From an uncultured Gemmatimonadota bacterium (lineage in GTDB: Bacteria > JAAXHH01), in contig OX638340.1 of assembly GCA_951812955.1 (NCBI GenBank), positions 1,152,001 to 1,216,000 of the forward strand: a stretch of DNA of 64,000 nucleotides, read 5' to 3'. Position 1 is the first letter of the stretch. Every line of letters starts with the position of its first letter. The notes beneath the pieces were generated by a model that did not search any database, was not told the DNA's origin, and saw nothing but the letters and a program-made list of their open reading frames with translations. Position numbers and translations under genes: made by a program. Below, piece by piece: positions 9,816 through 48,398 of this stretch.

Positions 9816-9837
9816 GTAGCACGCGCGTCCCTGTGGC

Positions 9838-18102: not shown

Positions 18103-19268
18103 TTGAAAAGGCTCAATTGATCGGGGCTGATGTCGAGGGTTCTCTCCGAAGGTGCCCGGTCCGGTGCGATATCGCGTTCCAGGAGCAACAAGGCGTCCCT
18201 CACGTCTTCAGCCATCTCCGCATCCGAACCTTCGTGGACGGGTTTCAACAGCAGGACTTCCTCCCGTTCGATACCGGGGTCGGATAGCAGGGCCGCGCTG
18301 TGCGTGCTGATCAACACCTGCCTGCCGGCGTTCCGCTGCATGCGGAGAATCAATACGGCGAGTCGGTTGACGATGCCCGAATGGAGACAGAGCTCGGGTT
18401 CCTCCAGCAACAGCAGTGAATCCCCTTCGAGGAGTGCCCACAACATGCCGATAAGGCGCAGCGTTCCGTCGGAAAACTGGTCTTCCCGCTGTATACCCGC
18501 CCGAGGCCGCCAGTGGGCGTATAGCGCCTGGAGATGGGGACGTCCGGTCTCCCGGTCTCGTACGAATTCGAGTTGTTCGAGCCGAGGCACGGCCAACTTG
18601 AGCACCTCCTCGATCCGGGACAGGCGGGCCTTGCGGGTCCGGTCATGCTCCCGTGCGATTCTGTCCAGGAAATCCTGGCCGTATGGATCGCCTTCGAGTG
18701 TTTGACCACCGATCAGATCCGTGTGGCGTAGAAGCGACGGTACCAGGTGATGGTAGGTGATGGCTTGAAAGAACCGGGCTATGTCCCGGAAATCACGGTT
18801 GGCGGTGATCTGTTCGAGGTAGGTCTGGGTAAGCCGCACGATGTCTTCCCGGTCGTCCTCGTTCGGCCTTTCGAGAATGACGGCCTCGTCCCTGATCACC
18901 CGTTCGAGCGTGATCAGCGTATGCCGGTTCCCCCGGGCCTGCTGCTTGAGCCCGAGTTCGTAGCGCCAGGTCTCATGCCCGTCTGCCGGATCGGAAAATC
19001 GGACCTCGATGGCGATATCGGGATCCCTGCGCGCGGCGAGATTCCGGATCTTGGTCATTCCGCCCCGGTCCGCGACCGCCTTCTGCAGTCCGCCGCCCTC
19101 GATCTTGGCGATATCCCGGAGGAACCGGAATACGTCCATCAGGTTGGACTTCCCGGACGCGTTGGGTCCGACGACGAACTGTCTTTCTCTCAGATCGGCG
19201 TCGATCCGCGGGAAATTTCGCCAGTTTCTGACTTTAATGTGACTCACGTACATGTGCCGCTCCGGCAA
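18099..19268 (-). CDS. ABC-type/AAA_21-family ATPase (OLD N-terminal-like, no nuclease domain)
   Basis: Walker A GPNASGKSN, signature/D-loop LLLLEEPELCLH and H-loop ISTHS. 389 aa with no Toprim or HNH domain. Confidence 0.7.
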   Translation of the reverse strand: MPERHMYVSHIKVRNWRNFPRIDADLRERQFVVGPNASGKSNLMDVFRFLRDIAKIEGGGLQKAVADRGGMTKIRNLAARRDPDIAIEVRFSDPADGHETWRYELGLKQQARGNRHTLITLERVIRDEAVILERPNEDDREDIVRLTQTYLEQITANRDFRDIARFFQAITYHHLVPSLLRHTDLIGGQTLEGDPYGQDFLDRIAREHDRTRKARLSRIEEVLKLAVPRLEQLEFVRDRETGRPHLQALYAHWRPRAGIQREDQFSDGTLRLIGMLWALLEGDSLLLLEEPELCLHSGIVNRLAVLILRMQRNAGRQVLISTHSAALLSDPGIEREEVLLLKPVHEGSDAEMAEDVRDALLLLERDIAPDRAPSERTLDISPDQLSLFK

Positions 19269-19277: not shown

Positions 19278-20468
19278 TTAGTCGAAGAATCCCTGGTCGT
19301 CCTCCTTCAGGTAGGGCAGCGTCTTGTCCGGTACCAGGTCGACCCCCAGGCCGGGTCTGTCCCACACATCGATGTAACCGTCCTTCACGATCGGGTCCGG
19401 CAGGCCCTCCACGATGTCGTACCACCAGGCGGGGTTGCCGACGGGATATTCGAAGGCGATGTAGTTGGGCGGCATGGCGGCCGATGCGTGCACCAGCGCC
19501 GCCAGGCCGATCAGGCCGTCGATGACGCCGTGGGGCGCCATTAGCACGCCGTGGAGATCAGCGTATTCGGCGATCCACTTGAGCTCGGCGATCCCGCCCA
19601 CGTCGGCGGGATCGGGACCCACCACGTCCACGGCGCGTTTCTCGATGAGGTCGACGAAGTTTTCCCTGAGATAGATCTGTTCCCCCGTGTGGATGGGCGT
19701 GGACGTCTTCGAATTCACCTCCCGGTACAGGTCGGCCAGGACATAGGGCGTATAGTCTCCGGTGATCATGTCTTCCAGCCACATTATATGCAGATGTTCC
19801 ACGGCTTTTGCGAGGCGCATGGCGTCTGGAACAAGCATGCCCGGCCCGCAATCGAGCGCCAGTCCCACTTCGTCGCCGAGGACCGCTTTCATAGCCTCGA
19901 TGCAGGCCACCAGGTGCTTCAGGCCCTTTTCGGTGAGCGGGCCGCGATTGCCGTGAAATCCGTGACGCTGCAGGTCGCCGTAGAAGAAGTCGGGGACCTG
20001 GGACGGCATCTGGCTATGGAAACTGATGCCCTGTTTGATGATGGTGAATCCTTCAGGCGCCGCCTTCATCCTGGCCATGTCCTCGGCGTAGTCATCCACG
20101 GTTGATCCCTTCATGGGAAACCGTACGGCCCCGTTGTAGACCCGGACCCGGTCCCGCATCTTGCCGCCGAGCAACTTGTACACCGGCAGGCCCGCCGCCT
20201 TGCCGGCGATGTCCCACAGGGCCATCTCGATTGCGCTTACCGAGCTGCCCCACGGCTTGAAACTGCCCAGCCGTCGTATACTCGCGATGACTCTGTTTAC
20301 GTCCGTGGGATCCTGGCCGATGATGAAATCCCGATAGAAGAGGACATGGGGTTTCAGGTAGTGCTTGGAGTTCTCTATCTGTCCAAGCCCGTGGATCCCC
20401 TCGTCCGTGGTGATCCGTACCACGGGGTTCTGGCCGATCACGGCGCATTTCAGGTCGGTGATTCTCAT
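19278..20468 (-). CDS. Enolase-superfamily enzyme (mandelate racemase/muconate lactonizing / sugar-acid dehydratase-like)
   Basis: MR/MLE N- and C-domain motifs including KxK and DxG. The start overlaps the upstream PhyH stop. Confidence 0.7.
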   Translation of the reverse strand: MRITDLKCAVIGQNPVVRITTDEGIHGLGQIENSKHYLKPHVLFYRDFIIGQDPTDVNRVIASIRRLGSFKPWGSSVSAIEMALWDIAGKAAGLPVYKLLGGKMRDRVRVYNGAVRFPMKGSTVDDYAEDMARMKAAPEGFTIIKQGISFHSQMPSQVPDFFYGDLQRHGFHGNRGPLTEKGLKHLVACIEAMKAVLGDEVGLALDCGPGMLVPDAMRLAKAVEHLHIMWLEDMITGDYTPYVLADLYREVNSKTSTPIHTGEQIYLRENFVDLIEKRAVDVVGPDPADVGGIAELKWIAEYADLHGVLMAPHGVIDGLIGLAALVHASAAMPPNYIAFEYPVGNPAWWYDIVEGLPDPIVKDGYIDVWDRPGLGVDLVPDKTLPYLKEDDQGFFD

Positions 20469-21343
20469 GCTGGATTCCCTTTCGACTGCAACCGTTTCTC
20501 CCATCCTGCCGGTTTGCCCGCTTCATCCCATGCCTTCATTTCGTCCAACAGGCGTTCAACGACTTTCTTTGGCCCCTGGAATCCTCCCTGGCGTTTCATT
20601 TCGCAGACCCCTTCCGACAACTGATCCTCGTATTCCGCTATGGGACCGGCACCGGGTGTCCAGGACGCGTAGGACGTGCAGTACCGCTGGAACATCGTGC
20701 GACGCGGCGGATCGTGCAGGGGCCAGGGGAGCGCGCCGTGACAAAGCGCTTCGGTGAAAATGACGGCGTCCCCGGCGTTGACGGGAACATTGACCACTGC
20801 AGGCGGACCGGAGCGGATGTTAATGTGCTCCGGCCGTTCGAAATAGGTCTTGTGGCTACCCGGTATGCAGACGAATCCGGCCCCGTCGGGAACGTCCACG
20901 AGGGAAATGGCCGCGTTGATGAAGGTGGCGAACACTTCGCCATCCGCCGCCTGGTAATCGTTGGCCGGGTTTCTCCACGCCCCGGAGACACCGTTGTGCA
21001 GCGTGATCTCGTCGCTGTCCGGCAGATTCACGGTGAGTGCGGACAGGAGGTGCTGGGGTCGCTGCCGGGTCAGTGCGAGCACGACGCGCATGATCGGCAG
21101 GTTAAGGACCAACCGGTCGAAAACCGGGTCGGCGTACTCGGCGTGGAGAATGGCCCGCGCGGCCGTCGATTTTTTCCTGGGATCCTCATAGGAACAGAGC
21201 GGCGGCGGCAGTTCGTCTTCGTCCATGCCGTGCCACGCGTCGCACCGGGCGATCATGTGTTCCAGATCCTCCTGGGGAACAACCCGGCGGAGAACCAGGT
21301 AACCATGCAAGTCGAACAGCCACTTTTCTTTGTCTGTGAGCAT
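20465..21343 (-). CDS. Phytanoyl-CoA dioxygenase (PhyH) family Fe(II)/2OG oxygenase
   Basis: PhyH-like fold motifs (HxD...H; GSHK). Confidence 0.65.
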   Translation of the reverse strand: MLTDKEKWLFDLHGYLVLRRVVPQEDLEHMIARCDAWHGMDEDELPPPLCSYEDPRKKSTAARAILHAEYADPVFDRLVLNLPIMRVVLALTRQRPQHLLSALTVNLPDSDEITLHNGVSGAWRNPANDYQAADGEVFATFINAAISLVDVPDGAGFVCIPGSHKTYFERPEHINIRSGPPAVVNVPVNAGDAVIFTEALCHGALPWPLHDPPRRTMFQRYCTSYASWTPGAGPIAEYEDQLSEGVCEMKRQGGFQGPKKVVERLLDEMKAWDEAGKPAGWEKRLQSKGNPA

Positions 21344-21439
21344 CGGGTGAAATTCGTTTGATGTGAACCGGGTGCCGGAATCCGTCGCGGGCGAGGCTCC
21401 ACGCTGGTCTACGCTAATTTACCAGTTTGCGGGCGCTCG

Positions 21440-22888
21440 TCAATTCACATACGCGTTGTGGAACTCGATCCACTTCGGAAGGACTTCCTCGATTACTTCC
21501 CTGGGCGGCAGGAACGCGATCCTCAGGTGACTGGTGCCCGGTTGCTGTCCGAATCCTGCCCCGTTGACCGTGACCAGCCCGGTCCGATCCAGAAGTCCCA
21601 TACAATAATCGAAATCGTCCGTTCCGTCCGGCAGTCCGTCCAGCCGGGGGAACAGGTACATCGCCCCGGTCCGCCCGAAACAGGAAACGCCGTCCATATG
21701 ATCGAATCCCGCCCTTATCATGACCGCCTTGTCGTGGAGGTCTTCGAGGATCTTCCGCCGCTCATGCGTGAAACGGCGGTAGGGCGCCGTGTTCTCCGGC
21801 GGGGGATTGACCAGCAGGTACATCATCAACTGCCCGACCGTGTTCGAGCAGATATTCACCGAAGCCTGTTTAAGCACGAGGTCCGTGAATGACAGATCGG
21901 TGTTCCGAATGCGCGGAGCGTTTCTGATCTCGAGGTATCCGCCCCGGTGGCCGCACTCGCCGTAGAATCCCTTCGAGGTGCTGTGGACGCTGAAGAGCGG
22001 TACGTCGCCCCGGCCCAGCACCCGGGCGAAGGATACGAATCCCGCGTCCGCGTCGTAGACGTTTTCCTGGTAGACCTCGTCGGCGATGATGGCCAGGTCG
22101 TTGTCCCCTGCGAAAGCGATGACCTCCCTGACGGTCTCTTCGTCCAGTACGGCGCCCGTCGGGTTTCCCGGATTGATGACCACCATGGCCTTGACGGTCA
22201 CGCCGCGCTTCCGCGCGCCTTCCAAAGACGAATCCAGCAGATTCCGGTCCATGGCCCAGCCCGATTCCTCGTCGAGGAAATAGTCGACCTGCGTGCCGCC
22301 GCAACGCTTGATGGCGGCGGAATACAGCGGATACTGAGGTATGGGAATCATGACGCCGTCGGATTCGTCGTCAATCAACAGGTCGATGACGTAACGCACC
22401 GCTTCGCTGGCGCCGTTGGTGATGAATATCTGTTCCGGATCGGAACGGGGAACAGAGCCACTGACCGCTCCGTCTCTCCGGTCGATAAATCCCGCCACGG
22501 CTTCCCGGATGAACCGCGGTCCGCTGCTGTCCGAGTAGGCGCCCATGCCGGTTTCCAACTGCGACAGGTAGTTTTCGCTGAGTTCGAGCACGTAATCGGA
22601 GTGGAAGTCGTCCCTTTCCAGTCCGTGCAGGTCAGCACCGTTGAACAGTGTTTTAAGTCGCCGTTCACGCTCGATTCGAATGGGGTGTTCGACCAGGCTC
22701 AGCACCTCCCGGTAGAAGGAGACGGGCTGCTGCCCAAGCGCCTGGGGATTGCCGAGGTTGCACGGAATGATGCGTCTGCCTTGTTGCTTCAGTTCGGCTG
22801 CCCGACTGGGAATCGGTCCCCGCACGGCGTACTCCATTTCGAGTATCCTTCGGTTGACCGTCATGTCCCGGGGCTTTATCGAACCCAT
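21440..22888 (-). CDS. Alanine aminotransferase (class I PLP aminotransferase, ALT-type)
   Basis: YAVRGPI, SKGFYGECGHRGGYLE and PLP-lysine context typical of ALT/AlaA. Confidence 0.8.
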   Translation of the reverse strand: MGSIKPRDMTVNRRILEMEYAVRGPIPSRAAELKQQGRRIIPCNLGNPQALGQQPVSFYREVLSLVEHPIRIERERRLKTLFNGADLHGLERDDFHSDYVLELSENYLSQLETGMGAYSDSSGPRFIREAVAGFIDRRDGAVSGSVPRSDPEQIFITNGASEAVRYVIDLLIDDESDGVMIPIPQYPLYSAAIKRCGGTQVDYFLDEESGWAMDRNLLDSSLEGARKRGVTVKAMVVINPGNPTGAVLDEETVREVIAFAGDNDLAIIADEVYQENVYDADAGFVSFARVLGRGDVPLFSVHSTSKGFYGECGHRGGYLEIRNAPRIRNTDLSFTDLVLKQASVNICSNTVGQLMMYLLVNPPPENTAPYRRFTHERRKILEDLHDKAVMIRAGFDHMDGVSCFGRTGAMYLFPRLDGLPDGTDDFDYCMGLLDRTGLVTVNGAGFGQQPGTSHLRIAFLPPREVIEEVLPKWIEFHNAYVN

Positions 22889-23057
22889 CCCGCAAACTCC
22901 ATTGCCAGATTCTACGTGGTCATACTGCGAACGCTACAATTTCAATCTATAGCGATCGGCAGGGAAATACAATAGGAGCGCTGTGTCAGAGGATCAATTA
23001 TAGAATAAGGTAGGTATGGGCGCTAAGTCCGCATCGTTCTTCCATGTGATCGAACTA

Positions 23058-25418
23058 TTACGCAAGATCGGGACCGGCCAGTCGGTAACCGACCCGAGGC
23101 TCGTTAGAGATGTACGTCGGGCTTCCCGCATCATCACCCAGTTTGGAGCGGAGTTTCTTCACGAAAGCATGCACAACCCGGTTGTCTTCGGAACTTCCGG
23201 ACCGCCATACGTTGCGCAACAAATAGTCGTAAGTCACGACGCGGCCGGCGTTGGTCGCAAGCACGCGTAGTAAATCGTATTCGGTTGCGGTCAGTTTCAA
23301 AGGTTCGTCCGCCAGGGTCACCCGTCGTTGCTCGAAGTCGATGACGAGATCAATCACCCGGTAGGGCTCGGGTGGACCGGCATGCCTGCGAAGCGCCGAC
23401 TGGATTCTGGCCACCAGTTCCGTAGGCGAATACGGCTTGACCACATAATCGGCTGCTCCGATCTCCAGAGCTTTGGCAATTGTCTCGTCTCTGCCATACG
23501 CGGACAGGAAGATAACCGGCTGATCAGCCATGGCCGGCACGCTTTGCATCAGTTCGATACCGTCCGCATCCGGGAGCAGCAAATCCAGTAGTACCAGATC
23601 CGGTTGACGTGATTTAATCAGACCGGGTACGTCATTGGGATTGCCGGTCACCAGCGCCTCGAAACTCGCGTCCTCGAGTATACCCCGTATCTGTTCCAAC
23701 ACCTGTGGGTCGTCATCCACCACAAGGACCAGCGGCTTCTGCCGATTTCCCGTGTCCGGGAGTCTTTGCCTCATGAAGGAGGGCAATTCGATCATGGCCG
23801 GCGCTTCATCCGCCACAGGTATCGTAAATGTAAAACGTGTGCCTAGACCGTTACCTTCGCTCTCGACCCAGATACGGCCGCCATGCGCCTCGACAAGTCC
23901 CTTGCAGATGGCCAGTCCGAGGCCCTCCCCAACCCCGCGTCCGCGATCTTCCCGTCCGCTTCGGGCAAACTTGCTAAAAATGTGCGGCAGACGCTCTGCG
24001 GGAATCCCTCGCCCTTCATCGACTACCGAAACCGCTACGAACAACCCCTCGCGTTGCGCAAGTACCTGTATGACTGACGATTCTGGCGCGTGGCGGGTAG
24101 CGTTGGACAACAGGTTGATCAGGACCTGAACTATGCGCTGCCGGTCCACCCGCACCCGAGGCAGATCAGTAGGCAGGTCAATACTGATCTGGATACGGCT
24201 CTCACTACTGAGAAACATATTCCGAGCCTGGTCCACAATGGCAGCCAGATCCGAGTACTCGGGGGATACCGACAGCGATCCCGTCTCGATATGAGCCGCG
24301 TCCAGCAGGTCGCTGATCAACTGTCTCATGTGATCGGCCTGGTCGTTGATTATGCGGAAAAGCTGCCGGGTCTCGGCCGGGTCCAGCACCGACGGGGTCT
24401 CTAGCACGGTGGCGGCACAGCCCTTTACAGAAGTCAAGGGAGCCCTGAGCTCGTGACTCACCAAGCTTAAAAACTCGGCCCGCATTCTTTCAAGTTCTTC
24501 TATCGGCGTCATATCCTGTAAGGTAACAACCAAGGACTCGACTTCTTCCTGCGGTGAACGTATAGGCGTTGCGTTGACCAGTATCGTGACCTTCCGGCCG
24601 TCCGGAACCTCAAGTACGATCTCTTCGGCGCGAACCGGTGTGGCCTCGTTCAACGCCTCAACCAATGCGGACTTCTCCAGGGCAATCGCACGCCCGTCGG
24701 TTCGCCGCGCACTCATCACGTCCAACAAATCCTCGGCGGTGTTTCCCGGTGTCATGAGATTGCCGACAATGCGTCGCGTCTCCTGGTTAAGGGATACCAA
24801 CTTGCCACTTTGGGCGTCAATTACCACTACACCAACCGGAGACGTGTCTATCAGGGCTTCCAGGTCGGCCCTGACCCGTCGCTCATCGCCGTGCCTGCGG
24901 GCGTTTGCGATCGCCGCCCCGGCCTGCGAAGCGAACAGCGACAGCATCCCTTCATCCTCACCCGTAAACCCCTGATCGGACACTTTTCCAACGAGACTGA
25001 ATATGCCAACATGCACGCCTTGATGCCGCATGGGCATGCCCAGGTAACAACCAGCCAGTACAGGGTCCGCCGGGAACCCTAACGAGGCAAGGTGAGTCGC
25101 TAGTTCCTTGAGCCTTAGTGGACGTTGGACCTGTCGAAAAAACTCCCACAGATCGTACCCAAAAGGTAGATCTGTCAGCCGCCTGTATTCTTCGGGGCTC
25201 ACGCCATATGTGACAAAATCCTGCAGGCTGCCCGTTGCATCCATTGTACAGATTGCGCCGTATTCCGCATTGGTCAACAAGCATGCGTTTTCCACGACCT
25301 CGTGCAAGACGGTTTTGATATCAAGGCTTTCGCTGATACGCACACTTGCCTGACTTAGACCTAAGAATCGCTCCTTGAGCGATTGTATCTCCGCTTGCAA
25401 CTCTTCGATTTTGGACAT
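23058..25418 (-). CDS. Fused sensor histidine kinase-response regulator (GAF-PAS-HisKA-HATPase-REC-OmpR wHTH)
   Basis: H-box FLSLVSHELRAPLT, N/G boxes, receiver LVVDDDP...DLVLLDLLLPD and OmpR-type C-terminus (TATEYDLL...VGYRL). GC is lower than the flanks. Confidence 0.8.
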   Translation of the reverse strand: MSKIEELQAEIQSLKERFLGLSQASVRISESLDIKTVLHEVVENACLLTNAEYGAICTMDATGSLQDFVTYGVSPEEYRRLTDLPFGYDLWEFFRQVQRPLRLKELATHLASLGFPADPVLAGCYLGMPMRHQGVHVGIFSLVGKVSDQGFTGEDEGMLSLFASQAGAAIANARRHGDERRVRADLEALIDTSPVGVVVIDAQSGKLVSLNQETRRIVGNLMTPGNTAEDLLDVMSARRTDGRAIALEKSALVEALNEATPVRAEEIVLEVPDGRKVTILVNATPIRSPQEEVESLVVTLQDMTPIEELERMRAEFLSLVSHELRAPLTSVKGCAATVLETPSVLDPAETRQLFRIINDQADHMRQLISDLLDAAHIETGSLSVSPEYSDLAAIVDQARNMFLSSESRIQISIDLPTDLPRVRVDRQRIVQVLINLLSNATRHAPESSVIQVLAQREGLFVAVSVVDEGRGIPAERLPHIFSKFARSGREDRGRGVGEGLGLAICKGLVEAHGGRIWVESEGNGLGTRFTFTIPVADEAPAMIELPSFMRQRLPDTGNRQKPLVLVVDDDPQVLEQIRGILEDASFEALVTGNPNDVPGLIKSRQPDLVLLDLLLPDADGIELMQSVPAMADQPVIFLSAYGRDETIAKALEIGAADYVVKPYSPTELVARIQSALRRHAGPPEPYRVIDLVIDFEQRRVTLADEPLKLTATEYDLLRVLATNAGRVVTYDYLLRNVWRSGSSEDNRVVHAFVKKLRSKLGDDAGSPTYISNEPRVGYRLAGPDLA

Positions 25419-25688
25419 GTTTCCCCTCAGGGTTTTTGCAACTACGGACTATCAGTCAGATTGGTCGATTTCGCATGATTCAAATAGGCTGGGTTGACCG
25501 GGATCGTGTCACTTAAAAACACCTATTCATGAATGTTCAGCGTAAAATCACAATCATTAACCAAAATATCATTACCATGTCAGAAAAACCAGGAATAAAT
25601 GCCGTGTAATACACATTTTGGTCAGTTATACTATTGACAGTTTTCCGCCCTCCCTTGAGATCGACCCGATTTTGTTGGTGAATTAAGC

Positions 25689-25994
25689 ATGCGAAAGGAT
25701 CCCGCATTGCTGTACGCCATAGTCTTAATGAGTGATGATAACCACACCCTGACAGACTTGGATCGCATTGTCAATGCTTCCAACGTCGTACCTGCTGAAG
25801 TTCCATTCCTGAAGTTCCCCCACGTACACTTCGTGATGTATGATGGGACCTCAAAAGCTCTAAGTACCCACCTTGGTCTGGCACGAAGGAAGATCCCGGC
25901 AATCGTGTTTGAGATAACCAGGAACAGCTATGCCGGCTATGGACCTGCTGTTTTCGATACCTGGATCAGAAAAAACTCGGAAGAGATTCGTTGA
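25689..25994 (+). CDS. Hypothetical small protein in AT-rich segment
   Basis: 101-aa ORF in an AT-rich region divergent from the kinase. No recognisable motif. Confidence 0.3.
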   Translation: MRKDPALLYAIVLMSDDNHTLTDLDRIVNASNVVPAEVPFLKFPHVHFVMYDGTSKALSTHLGLARRKIPAIVFEITRNSYAGYGPAVFDTWIRKNSEEIR

Positions 25995-26091
25995 GAACCC
26001 TGGTCAAGTGCTCTCACATTCACATGCGAGTTTTTGCCAGTACACGAATACGTTGCTGAAGCAGCAGTCAAACTTTCGCTAAGGTGAGAAC

Positions 26092-27147
26092 ATGAATCGT
26101 GTTCTAGTCGTGCATGCGCTGTCGTTGGTGATCGGTTGTGCGGGTGACCAGGGACCGATTGGCCCCGGGGGGGAACAAGGTCCATAGAGCCTTCAATGTT
26201 CAGAGGGACCGGTAGGGCCGCAGGGCACGCGGGGCGAGCAAGGGCCGCAGGGAATAGCCGGGCCGACCGACCCACAGGGCTCACAGGGTCCACAGGGGAC
26301 TGGCGCGCCGCTGAATTGGGCAGACGTGATCGAGGAGGGGAACCTCTACGACGCGGTCTATGTGGTCGGTGTCTAGACTGAGAGTTACTGGACCATTATC
26401 GGCACGGCTTTTGCAGCCTACTACGACGACAAGATGTGGACCAACGCCCACGTCGTAAAGCGTGCTATGGAGGAAGCGCAGAATAAGATTGGCGAAGTGC
26501 GAACATTCGTGGCGCGAGCAGGAGAGCGGTTTGTGGATGAAGGGCAAGGTCCGGGATTTATCTACTGGAACGGCGCTATCATCCACGAAGACTATGATGC
26601 TGAGCAGTATCCCCATGACAGCCCCGACGTCGCCCTGCTCCGCCTGGAGGAGAATGTTACTGGACCACTGCCCGAGCTCTTGCCGCGTGAATTCAGCCAG
26701 GACCTGCGCATAGGCCAGCCGCAGGGAATATTGGGATATCCAGGCGGGCTGGGACATTAAACCCTCGAGCTCGTATTGCTGACGTTCAAAGAAGGCACGC
26801 TGTCTGCGCTGCGGCCCTTCCTGAACGAGAGCTTTGACGGAACCAATACGGGGATGTTGCTGCACTACAATTTCCTTACAGAAGGCGGGACACGCGGGAG
26901 CCCCGTCTTCGATCACAACGGTTACATCGTAGGCATCAATTTCGCCGGTCTTGATAAAGAAATCGAGTTCGGAGAGGAACTCGTCACGATTGAAACGTCG
27001 CACCAATTCGGCATACACGTGGAGGCTCTTTGGCAAATGATCGACCAGGTTGGCGGAGCGCCGGCCGTCGCCGCGCGCGTTACGGTACCGGAAGGATCTT
27101 ACGAGCCATTTCCGGCCGGCTGGATTGGTGAGACTATCGCGCCCTAG
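26092..27147 (+). pseudogene. Collagen-like S1 (V8/trypsin-like) serine-peptidase lipoprotein gene interrupted by three in-frame stops
   Basis: A single frame has TAG 26185, TAG 26374 and TAA 26758 with no frameshift. It reads lipobox VIGCAG, G-x-y collagen triplets, then protease motifs TNAHVV, DVALLRL and GGTRGSPVF (nucleophile Ser replaced by Arg). Confidence 0.6.
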
Positions 27148-27210
27148 GAATTACAATCCGGAATTGTCCCGAGTTTTTTCAACCAATTATCCACACGAAA
27201 GGAATGAACC

Positions 27211-27762
27211 ATGAGATCCGTCCTATTTATCGTTGCCATGCTGGTTTTCACAGCCTGCGAGGGCAAGGTAGGACCGGCTGGACCGGCTGGACCGGCTGGA
27301 TCAGCCGGTCCACAGGGTGTAAAGGGCGATACCGGGTCGCTGGGACCGAAGGGTGACAGTGGTGATCCTGGACCGGCAGGGCCGGCAGGGCCGGCAGGAC
27401 CGCAGGGGCCGGCAGGACCGCAGGGGCCGACAGGGCCGGCAGGACCGGAAGGCGGTGGTACCACGGAGCCGCCACCACCACCGCCGGAGCCGCCACCACC
27501 ACCGCCGCCACCGCCGCCACCGCCGCCACCGCCGGCCGGCGACGGAGCCTGCGTAGCCGGGTTGGTCGTGAATCCGGGTGAGAGTTGCGTTTACAATGGC
27601 TACGACTTTTCCGTTAGTTCCGAAGGCAGAGGGCGCATTGCCTTTTTCTCCGCGGGAAGCGGTATAGATGCAAGGGGTACCACGATCAACGGCGTACTTT
27701 GGAACTTCCATGCAACCCGAAACAGTGGCAGTAGCAGTTGGACCATTCATTCTGCTGATTGA
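27211..27762 (+). CDS. Collagen-like lipoprotein with polyproline linker
   Basis: Signal plus Cys, about 25 G-x-y triplets, a run of about 25 Pro, then a C-terminal globular domain. Confidence 0.7.
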
Positions 27763-28305
27763 ATGGTTTCACCAGGTACGCTTCATCTCAATGGTTTCCT
27801 CTTCATATGGTGTCAACCAAATCTGTGTGCGAAACACCGCTGTCGGTAACCTGGCTGGAACGGAGTAACAATCGTGGTCGGTGAATTGTATCGGTTAATA
27901 AGTTGCATTGCGGCTTTCTGGTTTTGGGCGGATCCTTACCGTGCAACAACGATAGCGGGGTCGAGTCGTTATCTGTTCGTGCGATGGTTCTGTTCGTCTT
28001 GACTCCCAGACCGGCGAAGGCAAGGGAAGCGGGAGTTCGCGCGACGAAGCCTTGTTGTCCGCTTTTCCGATTGTTTGTTCTAAACTCAGTATCGACAGCA
28101 AAACACTCAGTCGATGTGAACAGAACTGGATTTCGAGAACGCCAGACTTTCGGGAACGTGACCATTGTAATCCCTGCTGAGAAGATTGTCACATGCTTTG
28201 AGTCTTCTTGAGGATGAAGTTTATCAATGAACGAAATTCCAATGCAAATGGAGGTTGATAAGCTGTAGTGCACTCCAAAATGGGACAAGTAGTTAAGCTA
28301 CAGGT

Positions 28306-29050
28306 TTAAACAGGTGGTTTCATTTGCTCGAACTCGACCGAAGGCGTGTAGCTTAAGGCGGGGTGCAAGCGTTTACGATTGTAGAGCTTGTAGATGAAGT
28401 AACCGATGCGTGATCGGGCTTCTTCGAGGGATTCGTACTCGTAGAGATAGCCCTCCTCGTATTTGAGCGTCCTGATGAAGCGCTCTGCTTTGGCGTTGTC
28501 ATAGGGGTTATCGCGCCGGCTCATGCTGATTCTAATACCGGCCTTTTTGTGGGTTTCGACATAGGCTTTGGAGGCGTACTACACGTCCCGGTCGGAGTGA
28601 TGTACCAAGCCCTTTGGTACCGATCTGGATGCCAGGGCGCTGTCCAAGGCATGAAGGGCAAGACCTGCATCGAGGGTTCGATTCAAAGCCCAGCCGATGC
28701 ATTTTCTGCTGCAGGCGTCAAGGACCACGGCCAGATAGATCCATTCGCCGGCCAGGCGGATGTAGGTGATTTCGGTCCCCCAGAGTTGATTGACTCCGAT
28801 TGTGTTCAGTTCCGGAACCAATTGGCGTAGAAGGCACGATCAGGGTTCGAGTCGGTGGTCGTTACGAAGACCTTGAGTCGCAGGGCAATCCGGTTGTCTT
28901 CGTACATGAGGCGCAGGACGCGCTTATGGTTTCAACAGGTAGAAAAGGCGTCTGAGTGTCCTAGTCAAAGAACGGTAGCCTTAGGAAGACCAGGTAAGGG
29001 AGAGCTTGTGTATCATGTCCCGCAGTTCAAGGGCCGGATCCATACGGCCT
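28306..29050 (-). mobile_element. IS3-family transposase OrfB remnant (pseudogene, 5'-truncated)
   Basis: rve integrase-core motifs (NQLWGTEITYI, YLAVVLD, DNAKAERFIRTLK), broken by stops and frameshifts. OrfA is absent. Confidence 0.7.
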
Positions 29051-29388
29051 CAGAGACCGAGGTAGTAGCTGGATCGACCGATCGAGAGCGTCCTGCGAAT
29101 CCGGGTGACCACGAGACCGTCTACTGAGGGCGTAATTGGTGGCGCCACCTGTGAATCCGCTTGGGATGAACCTAGTGTTCCGCGGCTGACTGAATGATAG
29201 ATTTACCCGAATCGGCTTCCTAAAGGACTTGGAGCTTGAACTCACGGGTGAACAGACGGCGTTTCAGAGTCATGAAGCGCCTCCTCGATCGGTAGGAAGC
29301 TTAACTCTGTCTCCCAGTCAAGGGTGCGGTACGATTTAACGTAAACTGACAGATGAGCCTGCAACAATCAACAAGAGGCAAGGAAACC

Positions 29389-32181
29389 ATGCCCTTGATT
29401 TACATTCGTGCCATACCCGTGTTCATATGTCTTGTATTGTTCACTCTGACCACCTGCGGCAAGGACAGCCCCACCAGACCGAAGCCGCCAGATCCACCGC
29501 CGCCAGTAGTGCCCGTAGCCACCCGCATTGACATCACTCCGCCTTCTGCCACGTTGAACTCGGTTGGCCAGACTATTCAACTCAACGCAAGAGTCCTGGA
29601 TCAGAACAACGCGCCAATTAGTGGCGCAGCCGTGACATGGACCAGCAGCGACAACGGCGTGGCTACCGTCACCGTCCAGGGGTTGGTAACTGCGGTAAAG
29701 AACGGCACGGCACGGATCACAGCCCGATCAGGTAATATCTCTGCAAATGCGAATGTCACTGTGTTACAGACAGCCGGTAGTATCGTTATCGAATCGGCTA
29801 TGACGACGCTAACAGCCATCGGTCAGACCGTCCAGCTGACGGCGAATGTACTGGATCGTAATGACAAGCCGGTAGCCGGTGCTGTCGTGACCTGGACGAG
29901 CAGCGATGCGTCCGTAGCAACGGTCAACGAACAGGGGTTGGTGACGGCCGTCAAGAGTGGCGGCACACGGATCACGGCACGGTCAGGCAGCGCCTCAGCA
30001 GGCATCACTGTTACGGTAATGCAGTCGGTAGCAAGTATCGTGATAGAGCCTGAGATGGCGACGCTCATGTCGATCGGCGAGACCGTGCAACTCACCGCCA
30101 CCGTTCTAGATCAGAACCGGCAACCAGTAGATGATGCCGTCGTCACCTGGCAGAGCAGCGATGAGGAAGTGGCCACCGTAAGCGCTGCAGGACTCGTTAC
30201 CGCCATCGGCAACGGCATGGCAACTGTCACCGCCAGATCAGGCAACGCCTCGCAGACGGCAACCTTGACTGTGACGATCCTTGATACACGACGCGACCGA
30301 GAAGCCCTTGCCGCACTGTATCATAGTACGGATGGACCGAATTGGACCAACAACACGAACTGGCTGAGCGATGCGCCTCTAGACTCATGGCATGGCATAG
30401 GAACTACCACACTTGGAGAGGTTCAGTATCTGAATTTGGGGGAGAACAATCTCCACGGCATCATCCCACCTGAAATAGGCAAACTTCAAAAACTGACAGT
30501 ACTGGCGCTCTACGGCAATAGTTTGACCGGCAACATCCCGCCCGAAATCGGACAGTTACAGAACCTGACAGATCTTAATCTCGGCGACAACGAGTTGAGC
30601 GGCCCTATCCCCACTGAAATAGGGCAACTTCAAAAACTGACAGGTCTTACTCTCGCCGGCAACCAGTTGAGCGGTCCAATCCCCCCTAATATAGTGCAAT
30701 TGCTGGAACTAAAATTCCTGTGGCTCGGCGGCAACCAGTTGAGCGGTCCTATCCCCACTGAAATAGGGCAACTTCAAAAACTGACAACTCTATGGCTAGG
30801 CGCTAATCAACTGACCGGCAACATCCCGCCCGAAATCGGACAGTTGCGAAACCTTACTGACCTAAATCTTGATTTTAACCAGTTGTCTGGATCCATACCC
30901 CCCTTAATCGGACAACTACAGCATCTGAAATTCCTGCGGCTGAATGGCAACCAGTTGACTGGATCCATTCCGCCCGAAATCGGACAGCTTAGCATGCTTA
31001 GGTTCTTGAACATGGCCTTCAATCCCAATCTTTCGGGGCCATTACCGGTAACAATCACCTCTCTTTCCAACATGGAATCCCTGAGTTTGCACTACACTCA
31101 AGTATGTATTCCTCCTACCGCCCAATTCCAGTCATGGTTAGACGGGATAGAAAACATAAGAGGCGATATTTCTAGCTGTCCAGGGCCAGAGGGACCAGTG
31201 GAACCGGAAGAACCGGAAGAACCGGAAATGCCGCCTCCTGTCGGAGAGCGTCTGGACGTGAGGATTGTTTATTTTGTTCCTGCAAATCATACTGGATACC
31301 CGAACATAGATGCCAAGATAGATTCGTTGGTCAACATCGTCAAATTGACTTATGCGGAGATATTTGAATTTCATGGCTTCGGCGATAGAACCTTTCAGCA
31401 CGAGCAAAATGCGGATGGCACGGCCAGGGTATATCATGTGAAGGGCCAATACGATGGCGAATACTATTCCAGCGAAACATTTTTTAAGGTTATACATACC
31501 GAATTGGAACAGATATTCGATTTAGAATCGAATATTTACTGGGTCGTATTGGATGCTATCGATGCAACTGTAGATGGTTATTGCGGGCAAGGGTATGGTG
31601 ATCTTCCTGAGGGCGGCGCGTTTTTAATACCCGGACCAAACGACTACTGGTTGGAGGATCGCGGGTGGAGTTGTTTCAACCCATCAGTTGCATCCCACGA
31701 AATCGGACATTCCTTTGGTCTAACCCATGACCTGCTCAGAGACGAAGTGCGTGTCGAGTCCTCATATCAAGATGACTGGATGATTACTTCGTATTGTGCC
31801 GCCGAATGGATGTCGGTACATCCATTCTTCACCGGCGAACCAACCACGGGGAATGACAATGAGGGTGAAATAAGTCTAAGGTCGATTTCTGATGCTTCAT
31901 CCGAGACTATCCGCCTGGTTTTCGATGTGAGCGACCCCGATATGCTGCACCAGGCTCAACTTCTTGATAGAAACGGAGAAACGATAGCCTACCGTGGATT
32001 GGAAGGCGAAAGCGCTACCGTTGTGTTTGAAACCGACCAGGTATCCTACGGCGATCAGATCTTGTTACGAACTATAGATAAACGTGCCTTTGTTGTTGAA
32101 GGCAAGTTCATTATAGATCGAGATGGGCCTATAACAGTAAGACAATTACAAACGGGGCGACCCTTCAAGCCACAGTATTAA
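29389..32181 (+). CDS. Surface lipoprotein: 4 x Big_2 Ig-like domains + ~9 plant-type LRRs + C-terminal matrixin-like zinc metalloprotease domain
   Basis: Lipobox LTTCGK and a four-times repeated Big_2 pattern (VATVxxxGLVTAVxxGxARITARSG). There are 24-aa LRRs (LxxNxLxGxIPxEIGQLQxLT) and HEIGHSFGLTHD (HExxHxxGxxH). The start is trimmed to Met 29389. Confidence 0.75.
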   Translation: MPLIYIRAIPVFICLVLFTLTTCGKDSPTRPKPPDPPPPVVPVATRIDITPPSATLNSVGQTIQLNARVLDQNNAPISGAAVTWTSSDNGVATVTVQGLVTAVKNGTARITARSGNISANANVTVLQTAGSIVIESAMTTLTAIGQTVQLTANVLDRNDKPVAGAVVTWTSSDASVATVNEQGLVTAVKSGGTRITARSGSASAGITVTVMQSVASIVIEPEMATLMSIGETVQLTATVLDQNRQPVDDAVVTWQSSDEEVATVSAAGLVTAIGNGMATVTARSGNASQTATLTVTILDTRRDREALAALYHSTDGPNWTNNTNWLSDAPLDSWHGIGTTTLGEVQYLNLGENNLHGIIPPEIGKLQKLTVLALYGNSLTGNIPPEIGQLQNLTDLNLGDNELSGPIPTEIGQLQKLTGLTLAGNQLSGPIPPNIVQLLELKFLWLGGNQLSGPIPTEIGQLQKLTTLWLGANQLTGNIPPEIGQLRNLTDLNLDFNQLSGSIPPLIGQLQHLKFLRLNGNQLTGSIPPEIGQLSMLRFLNMAFNPNLSGPLPVTITSLSNMESLSLHYTQVCIPPTAQFQSWLDGIENIRGDISSCPGPEGPVEPEEPEEPEMPPPVGERLDVRIVYFVPANHTGYPNIDAKIDSLVNIVKLTYAEIFEFHGFGDRTFQHEQNADGTARVYHVKGQYDGEYYSSETFFKVIHTELEQIFDLESNIYWVVLDAIDATVDGYCGQGYGDLPEGGAFLIPGPNDYWLEDRGWSCFNPSVASHEIGHSFGLTHDLLRDEVRVESSYQDDWMITSYCAAEWMSVHPFFTGEPTTGNDNEGEISLRSISDASSETIRLVFDVSDPDMLHQAQLLDRNGETIAYRGLEGESATVVFETDQVSYGDQILLRTIDKRAFVVEGKFIIDRDGPITVRQLQTGRPFKPQY

Positions 32182-32590
32182 GTCGTAACATCATTTGCTC
32201 GAACGCGGCCGGTGGTGTGTAGCCTAACACTGATGGTAGATCGGACCACATGACAAAGAACCCGGTCTTCGTCGGTGATCCACTCGCTCCAGGACCCCGG
32301 ATAGAGCACGGCGTCACCCAGGCCCGCGTGGGCAATGGCGAGCAGGTTGTGGCAGGCCGAGACCCCTGAACCGCAGTAGTTTATGGCGCGCTCCACGGGG
32401 ATACCTGCGAGCAAACCCTCGTATCTCTGCCTCAGTTCCTCAGGCGCCCGAAAGCATCCGTCTTCCCCGAGATTCTCATCGAAAGACGCGCACCGCGTCG
32501 ACCATTGAGAACCGCGCGTCGATCACGCGCCAGTCCGGATCCCGGTGATGGCGGTGCAGCGTCTGAACGTCGATCAGCGTGGTTTGCATG
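32181..32590 (-). pseudogene. Rhodanese (SseA-like sulfurtransferase) remnant with internal deletion and frameshift, abutted by an IS3 tail fragment
   Basis: The N-terminus ...RVIDARF and C-terminus INYCGSGVSAC...YPGSWSEW are present but about 170 aa of middle are missing. An IS3 C-terminal fragment (LGYTPPAAFEQM) lies at 32190-32237. Confidence 0.5.
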
Positions 32591-32639
32591 GCCGATCCAC
32601 GTGCCGGTGTATTCAGGCTTCTTTACCCGTTCTCTTCGT

Positions 32640-33480
32640 ATGTGAATTGGGAGGTAGCAATATCACTATACTGATGTTACCCCGTTTTCGTGGATGGTTT
32701 ACCATTTGGGATTCAGGCAGTTATCTTGAACCTCCTTTCGAAGTATATAGGTGAGAGGTATCCCCAAGGGAAGAGTGCCTTCTCCGGGTGTTGTAGAAGC
32801 CCGCGATGCACTGGAACTGGGCGAGTCTGGCGTCGGCCCTGGTTCCAAAGCACTTGCGATCGAGCAGTCCGCATTCCAGGCTGGTGAAGAAGCCCTCGCA
32901 CAGGGTATTGTCGTAGCAGTCGCCGACCGAACCCATCGAGGGTCTGACCGCGGCCTGCCTGCATTGATTGCCAATGGCCATCTGGGTGTATTGCAATCCC
33001 TGGCCGCTGTGGTGGATCACCGCGTGGGGTCTGTGCATTCCAAAAGGGTCATGCCGAGGGCGTCTGTGACCAGTTCGCTTCGCAGGTGGTTGGGTATGGG
33101 CCAACGCTTCTCAGGCTGCGGCCGGAACGTACGAGGTCGACCATCTGCTGGCGGAAGGCTGCCAGACAGGGGCCATGTAATTCGGGCAGGGCACGCTCCT
33201 TTCAACAAAAGAAGTTACATGTCCACTAAACCGGGTAAACTCCACCCAATTGGGGTCTTTAATCCCGGTCAAGTTTCTCAGGTTCCAGACCGTTCCCCAA
33301 ACAATTACTTGACGTTAAAAGCTTGCGAACAGTACTATGCAGTTAATCGTACGACTATATCCCCAACAAAGCTGGCAGTATTACCGGCCAACCTACTCTG
33401 TACGGCATTCAATTCGGCTGGATCATCAAATCTAGACCGAAATCTGAAAACGTCAACTTGGCTGATACACATGTTCGGTA
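32640..33480 (-). mobile_element. IS3-family transposase remnant (OrfB with frameshift)
   Basis: HHSGQGLQYT...SMGSVGDCYDNTLCEGFF...FYNTRRRHSSLG is a typical IS3 rve core, with a frame break near the C-terminus. Confidence 0.65.
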
Positions 33481-33516
33481 TCAGCGCCAATTCAACGGAA
33501 TCATGGGAGGCATGAT

Positions 33517-34752
33517 ATGAAATGGCTTATCGGAACAACGGTTGTAGCGTTGTTTCTCACACTGACCGTCGCGTGCGCAAACATGGAAGTGGCTGAGCAG
33601 ACCGATGAAGTGGCCGAAGAGACCGCCTCCGACGCCGTGATGGCGCCGGTATTCGAGGTGGATCCCATGTGGCCGAAGCCGCTTCCCAACCACTGGATCC
33701 TAGGTTCCGCCATCGGCGTGACCGTCGACTCCAACGACAACATCTGGATCATACACCGGGGCAACGGTAATCCGAATACGGAACTGGGCGCCGCGCAGGA
33801 TCCACCCGTGGCCGAATGCTGCATTCCCGCTCCGCCCGTACTCCAATTCAGTCCCGAAGGCGATCTATTGAACCACTGGGGTGGACCGGGTGAAGGATAC
33901 GACTGGCCCGGATCGAATCACGGCATAACCGTAGACCCGATGGGCAATCTGTGGATAGGGGGCAACGGGGGTGACGACGCCCATATCCTGGTCTTCGCAC
34001 AGGACGGCACCTTCCTGAAGCAGTTCGGTTCCCCGGGCGCACGACGGGCCGAATCGTTTGACGAGGCGGACCCGTCATGGTCCGGCAACAGCATGGATCC
34101 CGGGAATTTCGGGCGGGTGGCCAAGATTTCCTTCGACGCCAGCGCGAACGAGGCCTACGTAGCGGACGGCTACCTGAACAAGCGGGTCGCGGTGCTCGAC
34201 ATCGAGACAGGAACCCTGAAGAGGTATTGGGGCGCTTACGGCAACGAGCCGGACGATGCCGATATCGGGCGGTATGATCCGGAAGCTCCGCCTGCCCAGC
34301 AGTTCCGCAATCCAGTCCACGCCGCCGATCCTTCAAACGACGGTCTCGTCTACGTCTGCGACCGCCCGAACAACCGTATCCAGGTATTCCGGACGGATGG
34401 AACCTTCGTGCAGGAGAAAGTCCTCTCCGTCAACACGCTGGGCGCCGGGTCTACCTGGGACGTTGCCTTCTCAAAGGATTCCGAACAAAAGTACGTCTAC
34501 GTGGCCGACGGACAGAATATGAAGGTATACGTGTTGCTCCGGGAGACGATGGAAGTTCTGACCACATTTGGAGCCGGCGGCCGTCAGCCCGGCCAGTTCT
34601 TCGGTACGCACAGCATCGCGACCGATTCGAAGGGCAATATCTACACCACCGAGACCTACGAAGGCAAGCGCGTCCAGAAGTTCACCTACATGGGTGAGGG
34701 CCCTGTCGAGCAAAAAGACCAGGGCGTCATATGGCCTGCCGCATCCCGGTAG
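33517..34752 (+). CDS. NHL-repeat beta-propeller lipoprotein
   Basis: Signal peptide with lipobox Cys and repeated NHL-like blades (YVADxxNxRVxVF). Confidence 0.6.
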   Translation: MKWLIGTTVVALFLTLTVACANMEVAEQTDEVAEETASDAVMAPVFEVDPMWPKPLPNHWILGSAIGVTVDSNDNIWIIHRGNGNPNTELGAAQDPPVAECCIPAPPVLQFSPEGDLLNHWGGPGEGYDWPGSNHGITVDPMGNLWIGGNGGDDAHILVFAQDGTFLKQFGSPGARRAESFDEADPSWSGNSMDPGNFGRVAKISFDASANEAYVADGYLNKRVAVLDIETGTLKRYWGAYGNEPDDADIGRYDPEAPPAQQFRNPVHAADPSNDGLVYVCDRPNNRIQVFRTDGTFVQEKVLSVNTLGAGSTWDVAFSKDSEQKYVYVADGQNMKVYVLLRETMEVLTTFGAGGRQPGQFFGTHSIATDSKGNIYTTETYEGKRVQKFTYMGEGPVEQKDQGVIWPAASR

Positions 34753-48356: not shown

Positions 48357-48398
48357 ATCCGCGGTCTCCCCCTCGTTGATGTCTTGTGAGAATCTCCT

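Follow-up and report, generated by a model that had tools for sequence, protein, structure and literature searches.

What is the block of GC-poor DNA, about 10 kb long and rich in genes for surface and secreted proteins, that separates the aminotransferase gene alaA from an NHL-repeat lipoprotein gene (NHL) in an uncultured Gemmatimonadota bacterium? The block lies in a stretch of 64,000 nucleotides, hereafter the window (positions 1,152,001 to 1,216,000 of contig OX638340.1, assembly GCA_951812955.1). A first-pass annotation, made from the sequence letters, had described it as horizontally acquired accessory DNA undergoing decay, with AT-rich DNA and remnants of IS3-family insertion sequences (ISs) at its borders. 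Comparison with related genomes leads us to a modified answer: the interval ~22,880-33,565 (~10.7 kb) is very probably a flexible genomic island lodged between the divergent core genes alaA and NHL, recently exchanged, and a patchwork inside. The claim of horizontal acquisition holds, in that the site is empty in 12 relatives and the left part of the block recurs in a non-sister genome with about sevenfold lower synonymous divergence (dS) than the neighbouring core genes. The notions of how the block is bounded, and of what its low GC content means, do not.

A survey of the site with the aminotransferase as query, keeping one genome per species, returned 13 close loci (L001-L013). All come from uncultured bacteria whose record titles read Latescibacterota or Gemmatimonadota, and the chromosome-level ones are metagenome-assembled genomes (MAGs). 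Protein identity of the aminotransferase to that of the window is 81-88% in 12 of the 13 loci and 71% in L013. The gene order in L001-L011 and L013 is FAD-oxidase, PhyH, MOFRL, HupE, NHL on one side and alaA, PhyH, MR_MLE, AAA_21 on the other, with NHL and alaA divergent and ~410-490 bp apart. None of the island genes is found at the alaA-NHL site of these 12 loci, L012 being the exception. The search for an empty site that the first-pass annotation had proposed was thus successful, alaA adjoining NHL in 12 related genomes, and the finding that it had named as contrary to acquisition, conservation of the island's gene order across relatives, was not made at L001-L011 or L013. Nucleotide homology between the window and the relatives ends at the start of alaA (~22,874) and returns at ~33,562-33,570. 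Because alaA adjoins NHL in 12 relatives, with homology stopping and resuming at the edges of the block, the entire block, including its hybrid sensor kinase gene, is an insert relative to the ancestral arrangement.

The edges themselves are instructive. The spacer between alaA and NHL is well conserved among L001-L011, 11 of the 12 empty-site genomes, and the 169 bp that now separate alaA from the kinase gene (22,889-23,057) cannot be aligned with this ~410-bp sequence. In L002-L011 (at ~9,600-9,900 of the loci, minus strand) the spacer carries a strongly conserved TTGCTTGACC...GGGGTAACTTCGCC and a GC-rich hairpin upstream of NHL-HupE, both absent from the window. It has no Rfam match, and its consensus fold shows weak covariation, with only five compensatory pairs and a slightly unfavourable covariation term. 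With this conserved spacer the window may have lost a promoter plus leader, and NHL-HupE may be under different regulation there. At the right edge, the window NHL protein begins with the signal peptide MKWLIGTTVVALFLTLTVACAN, as against the conserved MIRRSF...AVACAD of the relatives, and homology begins at the lipobox; NHL and HupE of the window are otherwise typical of the clade.

The left part of the island could be followed into a second lineage. A single organism is represented by three assemblies, L086, L087 and L088 (JGI sample 3300002734, GCA_001753005.1, SRR3473501), and in all three the kinase gene stands beside a gene called as alaA; L086 and L087 also show PhyH downstream, and a 56-aa open reading frame (ORF) and a 356-aa gene upstream of the kinase. 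L086, a more distant relative, holds the left 4.5 kb of the island at the same site, and a neighbour-joining tree of alaA plus PhyH places it outside the clade formed by the window and eleven empty-site genomes. Nucleotide identity between the window and L086 is 0.69-0.85 (~0.79) over 20,191-22,890, rises to 0.91-0.98 from ~22,890 across the spacer and the kinase gene, and then becomes uneven: 0.73 in the AT-rich region, 0.99 at 25,741-25,890 and 0.63-0.86 past 26,040. The corresponding dS values (Nei-Gojobori) are 0.144 for the kinase, 1.12 for alaA and 0.92 for PhyH. Near-identity to L086 begins inside alaA, at ~22,800-22,880, which puts the breakpoint in alaA codons ~5-25; the first five codons (MGSIK) are common to the window and L086 and unlike those of every empty-site genome. 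An initial placement of the left border in the spacer, prompted by an apparent shared TATAAT upstream of alaA, was dropped on the strength of this comparison, which moves the border into alaA. Since genomes that are not sisters share a block with roughly sevenfold lower dS than the adjoining core genes, the left part of the island was exchanged recently, and horizontally, between related lineages at one site. The donors seem to have come from within the clade and not from a distant phylum.

The features of the island and its edges are as follows (window coordinates).

21,440-22,888, minus strand: alaA, class I/II aminotransferase gene, left flank
22,800-22,888, minus strand: 5' end of alaA within the exchanged tract, left crossover zone; near-identity to L086 from ~22,800-22,880
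22,889-23,057, no strand: alaA-kinase spacer (169 bp), in the island; GC 0.46; 95-97% identical to L086
23,058-25,418, minus strand: intact 786-aa hybrid sensor kinase/response regulator, GAF-PAS-HisKA-HATPase_c-REC-Trans_reg_C (OmpR-type), all domains above Pfam cutoffs
25,419-25,688, no strand: AT-rich divergent intergenic region between the kinase gene and the orf101/lipoprotein genes; GC 0.40 (0.39 for 25,440-25,690)
25,689-25,994, plus strand: orf101, a 101-aa ORF of uncertain coding status; 25,741-25,890 is 99% identical to L086
26,092-27,147, plus strand: lipoprotein pseudogene with collagen-like repeats and a trypsin-like serine protease domain, one gene in one frame (MNRVLVVHALSLVIGC, GXY repeats, trypsin-like domain)
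27,211-27,762, plus strand: intact 183-aa collagen-like lipoprotein; signal with Cys, GXY repeats, poly-Pro linker, small Cys-containing C-terminal domain
27,763-28,305, no strand: non-coding low-GC filler; GC 0.475; short ORFs only
28,306-29,273, minus strand: IS3a, a nearly full-length dead IS3-family element (OrfA and OrfB); HTH_Tnp_1, rve, rve_3
29,353-32,181, plus strand: intact 942-aa lipoprotein; signal, poly-Pro linker, three Big_2 domains, plant-type 24-residue leucine-rich repeats (LRRs; LRR_14), C-terminal domain predicted to be an OgpA-like zinc metalloprotease (HEIGHSFGLTHD)
32,191-32,227, minus strand: possible IS3 3'-end relic just after the Big_2-LRR stop; 84% identical over 37 nt to the 3' end of IS3a; translates to LGYTPPAAFEQM
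32,262-32,593, minus strand: two rhodanese (sulfurtransferase) stubs, a partial second copy; ~33 N-terminal and 78 C-terminal codons; GC 0.64
32,721-33,104, minus strand: IS3c, C-terminal OrfB fragment of a second, different IS3-family transposase; rve_3 35.6 bits; NCBIfam IS3 model positions 272-364 of 369
33,105-33,565, plus strand: right end, low-GC non-coding DNA and the replaced NHL start and signal peptide; GC 0.495; NHL ATG at 33,517
33,517-34,752, plus strand: NHL-repeat lipoprotein gene, right flank; HupE/UreJ next

The composition of the block sets it apart from its surroundings. With the refined borders (22,889-33,560) its GC content is 0.540 against 0.606 outside, and the originally annotated interval, 23,058-33,500, gives 0.541 against 0.605 for the rest; the latter is the lowest-GC stretch of its size in the window. 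The lowest window of equal size that does not overlap the island has a GC content of 0.578 (mean 0.608, standard deviation 0.012, 321 windows), and 1-kb windows inside the island lie below those outside (Mann-Whitney p = 3e-10). The drop that had been described is therefore real, with some correction of the figures: the flanks average 0.62 over 10 kb on either side (range 0.60-0.63), not 62-66%, and the 1-kb values inside span 0.475-0.591, with the kinase gene at 0.57, in place of about 48-55%. Tetranucleotide deviation from the window average, in 2-kb windows, peaks at 0.29-0.43 over 24-33 kb, save 0.25 at 26-28 kb, and is 0.18-0.27 outside the island, excepting windows that overlap a patch at 59-63 kb. 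The GC and tetranucleotide profiles that had been suggested as a check are thus far from uniform, and the island stands out in both. Of ten flanking genes, nine have a GC content at third codon positions (GC3) of 0.74-0.81 and the tenth has 0.66; the island values are 0.64 for the kinase, 0.66 for the collagen-trypsin pseudogene, 0.55 for the collagen lipoprotein, 0.54 for orf101 and 0.54 for the Big_2-LRR gene (0.46 in its last domain). By GC, GC3 and tetranucleotides alike, then, base composition and codon usage are deviant in the manner of a genomic island.

As to how the block came to the site, it replaces the conserved ~410-bp spacer together with the first codons of both alaA and NHL, and would have entered by homologous recombination with its left crossover in the conserved 5' end of alaA. 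Such a flank-guided replacement, as opposed to site-specific integration, fits because the spacer is replaced, both genes have new 5' ends, the breakpoint lies in alaA and the cargo varies among three genomes. The window, L086 and L012 hold different sets of surface-protein genes beside alaA. The neighbour of alaA in L012 encodes a 954-aa lipoprotein that shares with the window protein the signal, the proline linker, the first Big_2 domain (55% identity) and the LRR tail; its middle consists of Big_9, PKD and cadherin domains and it has no protease. Beyond it, positions 1-6,230 of L012 (minus strand) form a giant ORF of more than 2,059 aa that runs off the end of the locus, with repeats 50-68% identical to the C-terminal domain of the collagen lipoprotein of L086. 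A reading of L012 1-6,200 as decayed DNA was rejected on account of this single continuous ORF.

The marks of a classical integrative island (an integrase, a tRNA or tmRNA target and direct repeats) are lacking. Pfam finds no integrase domain among the island ORFs, there is no tRNA or tmRNA gene in the 64-kb window, and Rfam at its gathering threshold gives no match in the window, L002, L007 or L012. The direct repeats that were to be looked for at the borders were not found, the repeat search returning only internal coding repeats (LRR, collagen, poly-Pro) and pairs of chance size.

Within its borders the block is a patchwork of segments with different divergence, and its segments are best taken in turn. 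The kinase carries HisKA, HATPase_c and receiver domains in one chain, as a hybrid kinase should, and its catalytic and receiver motifs are complete (H-box SHELRAPL; receiver Asp context LVLLDLLLPD). It is 94% identical in amino acid sequence to that of L086, with a ratio of nonsynonymous to synonymous divergence (dN/dS) of 0.19 (Nei-Gojobori). Its 90%-identity cluster has one other member, P0365, the protein encoded on L086, L087 and L088; the next homologues, in L085 and L083, are 70-71% identical. The L083 homologue stands beside a Type ISP restriction enzyme. At L085 440-18,355 the 70%-identical homologue is found amid a phage-type integrase gene, ankyrin-repeat and FGE-sulfatase genes, DNA methylases, a restriction-enzyme fragment and ArdC, which looks like an integrative or conjugative element with the same type of kinase. 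Since the L085 and L083 homologues adjoin integrase, restriction-modification and ArdC genes, this type of kinase is often found in mobile DNA.

The AT-rich segment annotated at 25,440-25,690 was confirmed. Within it, 25,441-25,590 is 0.73 identical to L086, between neighbours at 0.91-0.99, and L086 has 173 extra nucleotides near 26,020. Because this piece is 73% identical to L086 while the next 150 nucleotides, in orf101, are 99% identical, it has another history than its neighbours, either faster change or separate replacement. Promoter and terminator scans gave counts equal to those of shuffled sequence, and promoter-like sites are not enriched in 25,419-25,688. From the adjacency of the two, the OmpR-type domain of the kinase may control the divergent lipoprotein genes through this region. 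No Pfam match to orf101 was found even at E = 10, and the gene call at the corresponding place in L086 is a different ORF, of 56 aa.

The gene content of the island had been broadly described correctly; the collagen-like lipoprotein and protease pseudogene listed as separate features proved, once all six frames were read and the intact L086 orthologue was compared, to be a single gene, at 26,092-27,147. Its trypsin-like Pfam fragments fall at 26,434-27,147, and it is interrupted by TAG at 26,185 and 26,374 (both CAG in L086) and TAA at 26,758 (CGT in L086). The catalytic serine is lost as well, the motif GNSGSP of L086 having become GTRGSP, and several collagen glycines are mutated. The intact 356-aa orthologue in L086 stands at dS 0.59 and dN 0.21 from it. 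Runs of GXY are readable in both collagen genes of the island. The second, at 27,211-27,762, reaches 33.9 bits against Pfam Collagen (cutoff 27.2), in keeping with its Gly-X-Y repeats, and has partial matches to the collagen-like adhesins SclB and Lcl; its lipobox was read from the sequence. The L086 orthologue, at the end of its contig, has the signal and the collagen part in common with it and a different C-terminal domain. No similarity to any compared locus was found for the filler that follows.

The Big_2-LRR lipoprotein belongs to a very large family (more than 7,700 matches); Peptidase_M66 is present in many of these proteins, and several belong to MAGs labelled Gemmatimonadota. The first-pass annotation had called its last domain a matrixin. 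Against Pfam, that domain gives only sub-threshold, motif-level matches, with Reprolysin_4 at 21.1 (cutoff 22) and Peptidase_M10 at 16.6 (cutoff 24), the latter confined to the zinc motif (17 residues). A search of cluster representatives gave 1,228 relatives of the domain, and five of ten relatives tested reach the PF12044 cutoff, the window protein by itself falling below it. The family was assigned with a 17-sequence profile of the domain searched against the PDB. This profile matched OgpA (6z2d/6z2o) with E = 1.8e-14, over a stretch that takes in the N-terminal beta-alpha region and the HExxH site, and 8dek/8df2 (deposited as 'NPCBM/NEW2 domain-containing protein') with E ~2e-13, as against ~0.02-0.05 for matrix metalloproteinases (MMPs), which were matched only at the zinc motif. 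Since the profile is so much closer to OgpA than to MMPs, the domain is best classed as a predicted OgpA-like metzincin and the matrixin label (MEROPS M10, PF00413) was withdrawn. As such it may cut O-glycosylated host proteins.

Closest to the Big_2-LRR protein is P0003. The contig that encodes it, L081, derives from the JGI sample that also yielded L086; when metagenomes were scanned with the protease domain, the sole match was L082, from the same organism as L081. Against L081 7,158-10,424 similarity rises along the protein, from 60-70% amino acid identity in the Big_2 head through 70-90% in the LRR block to ~95% in the protease domain. At the nucleotide level, the 5' half of the gene is 65-68% identical, and 30,456-32,267 is 89.6% identical, this match reaching 85 nt beyond the stop and including the motif that resembles an IS3 tip. 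The protease domain has dS 0.079 and dN/dS 0.41, the LRR part dS 0.36. Such a gradient suggests domain-level recombination between paralogues of the family.

The gutted rhodanese of the first-pass annotation is indeed present, as two stubs separated from an intact 283-aa rhodanese by deletions of 146 and 495 nt. The stub at 32,262-32,497 corresponds to L081 10,656-10,891 (82%) and that at 32,493-32,593 to L081 11,387-11,487 (84%). The remnant ORF has no Pfam match and falls short of a complete two-domain protein of ~283 aa. The Big_2-LRR gene of L081 has downstream of it, in convergent orientation, an intact gene for a 283-aa rhodanese, and both lie amid SMC, glycosyltransferase, helicase, guaA, kdtA/lpxK and lpxB genes. 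The stubs are taken as a second, partial copy because the 3,813,436-bp source contig of the window also has an intact rhodanese, P0272. They are 82-86% identical to both L081 and L089, with a protein-level motif in common with P0272; the L089 rhodanese falls in the same 90%-identity cluster as P0272 and lies in a native locus with the same guaA-helicase side.

On the other, downstream side of that rhodanese the genes are unrelated: L089 10,962-19,796 encodes proteins of 812 and 1,128 aa that have no Pfam match, GmrSD_N/HNH, a PAPS-reductase-like protein and DUF4007. This block looks like a variable region of the defence type, and the rhodanese site may be a second hot spot.

The two IS3 copies are, as first described, both of the IS3 family and both dead, and they are not equivalents: IS3a is nearly full length and IS3c is a fragment of a different element. 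The OrfA fragment of IS3a matches HTH_Tnp_1 at 34.1 bits (cutoff 24.1) and its OrfB fragments match rve and rve_3 in Pfam (integrase core 28,306-28,821, minus strand) and positions 215-369 of 369 of the NCBIfam IS3 transposase, with at least six in-frame stops and at least two frameshifts. IS3a thus has the OrfA helix-turn-helix and the OrfB DDE core of its family; all fragments match part of the NCBIfam IS3 model, and all copies are disrupted. An OrfA-like stretch upstream of IS3c was dropped for want of a Pfam match. Neither element has a counterpart in the compared loci or elsewhere in the window. The IS3-tip-like relic at 32,191-32,227 is too short to exclude chance; if genuine, it would be old and carried along, because it lies inside the stretch common to the window and L081.

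These remnants raise the question of whether two IS3 copies carried everything between them into the alaA-NHL spacer as one unit, as a composite transposon. The two remnants lie on the same strand and, with the possible tip, bracket the Big_2-LRR gene and the rhodanese stubs, and a partial rhodanese copy is a typical passenger of IS-mediated capture. Of the features expected of a composite transposon, however, the same IS at both ends and a target duplication are both missing: no nucleotide repeat was found between IS3a and IS3c, and a search around 28.15-29.42 kb and 32.56-33.56 kb revealed neither terminal inverted repeats nor target-site duplications, as expected for decayed copies. The left border has no IS, the 5.4 kb from the kinase to the collagen lipoprotein lie outside the IS pair, and the spacer and both gene starts have been replaced where a transposon would merely have interrupted the spacer. 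For the whole island this explanation is contradicted, and overall we regard it as unlikely; the composite mechanism may account for the sub-block at 28.3-33.1 kb only. The earlier picture of an island bounded by AT-rich DNA and IS3 remnants was likewise not borne out, since the AT-rich piece and IS3a are internal, only IS3c is near an end, the right one, and no IS is found at the left. Under the reading we prefer, of a flexible island exchanged through its flanks, the IS3 elements would have inserted later, brought in or rearranged the Big_2-LRR/rhodanese fragment (28.3-33.1 kb), and then died.

A second alternative concerns the low GC content, which could stem mainly from AT-biased mutational decay of dead DNA and so be no mark of origin. 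In the collagen-trypsin pseudogene a C-to-T change (CAG to TAG) accounts for two of the three internal stops, and the non-coding filler has a GC content of 0.40-0.50. The lowest GC3 values, however, belong to intact, constrained genes, the Big_2-LRR gene with its C-terminal domain and the collagen lipoprotein, and those of dead IS3a and the collagen-trypsin pseudogene (0.62-0.66) lie above the intact Big_2-LRR gene. The dead rhodanese stubs have kept their high GC content, and their substitutions relative to L081 show no direction bias (18 vs 14 and 3 vs 6 changes). We therefore consider this explanation improbable. The chromosomal Big_2-LRR gene of L081 is also low in GC (0.525, against 0.628 in its neighbours and 0.674 in the rhodanese gene). 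Since that gene is GC-poor in L081 too, and the stubs remain at 0.64 with no GC-to-AT bias, low GC is a trait of these surface-protein gene families that decay does not account for. The description of the island as decaying thus holds for the collagen-trypsin gene, IS3a and the rhodanese; it does not hold for the two largest genes, which are intact and under purifying selection, nor for low GC as a signature of decay. From these comparisons we infer that the kinase and the LRR-protease are kept by selection (dN/dS 0.19 and ~0.4), while decay affects the collagen-trypsin gene, both IS copies and the partial rhodanese.

It could also be supposed that the ancestor already had the block at this site and that the relatives lost it, the odd composition of the block arising from its gene families and from decay. 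The early-branching L012 and L086 also hold surface-protein genes beside alaA, and low GC is intrinsic to the Big_2-LRR family even at the L081 chromosomal locus. Nevertheless, repeated precise loss is an unlikely route to 12 genomes, including the outgroup L013, with alaA-NHL adjacency, 11 of them with the conserved spacer, and the window is nested among empty-site genomes in the alaA plus PhyH tree. A kinase dS of 0.14 next to core genes at ~1.0, with a non-coding spacer still 95-97% identical, is incompatible with vertical descent. Ancestry at the site is accordingly very improbable. An assembly artefact, in which DNA of different strains was joined, is scarcely credible either: the source looks like a metagenome-assembled single contig, the chromosome-level records of its relatives are MAGs, mis-joins typically occur at IS copies and repeat-rich genes, and the right junction is seen in this window only, but the alaA-kinase junction recurs in three independent assemblies of another organism, the window kinase is 94% and not 100% identical to that of L086 and so does not merely derive from that organism's reads, and there is no island-like sequence elsewhere in the window, the junctions lying within intact frames with alaA and NHL both open.

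Several observations weigh against the preferred account of a recently exchanged island, or limit it. The right junction has no independent confirmation, because the L086 contig stops short of it; the position of the right crossover cannot be fixed, and the evidence for homologous recombination comes from the left border only. Divergence from L086 is uneven (kinase dS 0.14, collagen-trypsin gene 0.59), and the whole 10.7 kb may not have moved at once; for the Big_2-LRR segment, L086 allows no comparison at this site. The segment is a mosaic in its own right, its rhodanese stubs (82-86% nucleotide identity) being more diverged from L081 than the adjoining protease domain (~96%). The regulatory link between kinase and lipoproteins is drawn from adjacency only, the promoter scan having given no enrichment. 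The protease substrate is drawn from remote homology only, the AlphaFold model (three sequences; predicted local distance difference test score, pLDDT, 45) being too poor for a comparison of active sites.

Elsewhere in the window, an AAA_21/AbiEii-type ATPase gene (18,099-19,268, minus strand) lies in the conserved left flank. Because it is present in all 13 relatives, it behaves here as a core gene and not as mobile defence cargo. A second low-GC patch at 59,800-61,900 (GC ~0.47, tetranucleotide deviation 0.395) holds a 450-aa ORF without a Pfam match (60,057-61,409, minus strand), with a TonB-dependent receptor gene (57,208-60,018) and tatC (61,507-62,763) as neighbours, and may be another small insert. 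Two more short stretches, 48,100-48,900 and 53,800-54,700, fall under the GC threshold of two standard deviations.

The cargo of the island would make up a host-interaction set, with a cytoplasmic GAF-PAS hybrid kinase, collagen-like lipoproteins and an LRR lipoprotein bearing an OgpA-like protease. The clade of the source bacterium is labelled Latescibacterota or Gemmatimonadota in the records of its relatives, whose isolate names suggest sponge or coral hosts, and the bacterium itself is probably sponge-associated. A bolder and admittedly doubtful extension is that the alaA/NHL site is a dedicated swap point, where co-resident members of a host-associated clade exchange a 'sense-and-display' module of a kinase and the lipoproteins under its control, recombination shuffling the Big_2 head, LRR block and protease tail between paralogues.

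The locus leaves the understanding of genomic islands unchanged; it is a well-documented but ordinary example. Its value lies in a quantified case of gene flow, recent and between uncultured bacteria that appear to be host-associated, in which dS falls sevenfold at a breakpoint placed within ~80 bases, and in showing that host-facing genes (collagen-like, LRR, O-glycoprotease-like) and a linked sensor kinase belong to the mobile pool of the clade. It also carries a warning for annotation: low GC, here a property of the gene families, proves neither a distant donor nor decay, and 'matrixin' would have been the wrong label.

Among known systems, the closest parallel is found in the replacement-type flexible genomic islands of marine bacteria, a concept developed by Rodriguez-Valera, Lopez-Perez and colleagues. 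As in those islands, a fixed site between core genes holds strain-specific cargo (in the window, L086 and L012) that encodes exposed surface structures, there is no integrase or tRNA, and a breakpoint within a flanking core gene fits homologous recombination. Their classic cargo, however, consists of glycosylation or O-antigen clusters, in place of collagen and LRR lipoproteins with a sensor kinase, and many relatives here are empty at the site, an additive-like trait, with only the left crossover documented. Classical genomic and pathogenicity islands share with the block its absence in relatives, deviant composition, mobility remnants, surface or secreted cargo and partial decay, but the block has no tRNA (in the 64-kb window), integrase gene or flanking direct repeats. 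The likeness to IS3 elements and IS-bounded composite transposons lies in the OrfA-OrfB layout of IS3a, the OrfB C-terminal fragment of IS3c and the position of both next to a captured chromosomal fragment; unlike such transposons, the island is not bracketed, its copies are dead, and no linking repeat, inverted repeats or duplications were found.

At the level of the proteins, sponge-associated Latescibacterota MAGs have been reported to encode LRR and NHL repeat proteins (PMC12993501). The window protein, with its plant-type LRRs, resembles the eukaryotic-like proteins of sponge symbionts (LRR, NHL, ankyrin), and differs from them in that the LRRs are fused to Big_2 and a protease domain and are encoded in a mobile, recently exchanged block. 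Finally, the protease domain resembles OgpA, the 'O-glycan protease' of Akkermansia muciniphila, in its profile match including the HExxH site; identity to OgpA is low, and here the domain is C-terminal, following Big_2 and LRR domains and carrying an extra beta-rich tail.

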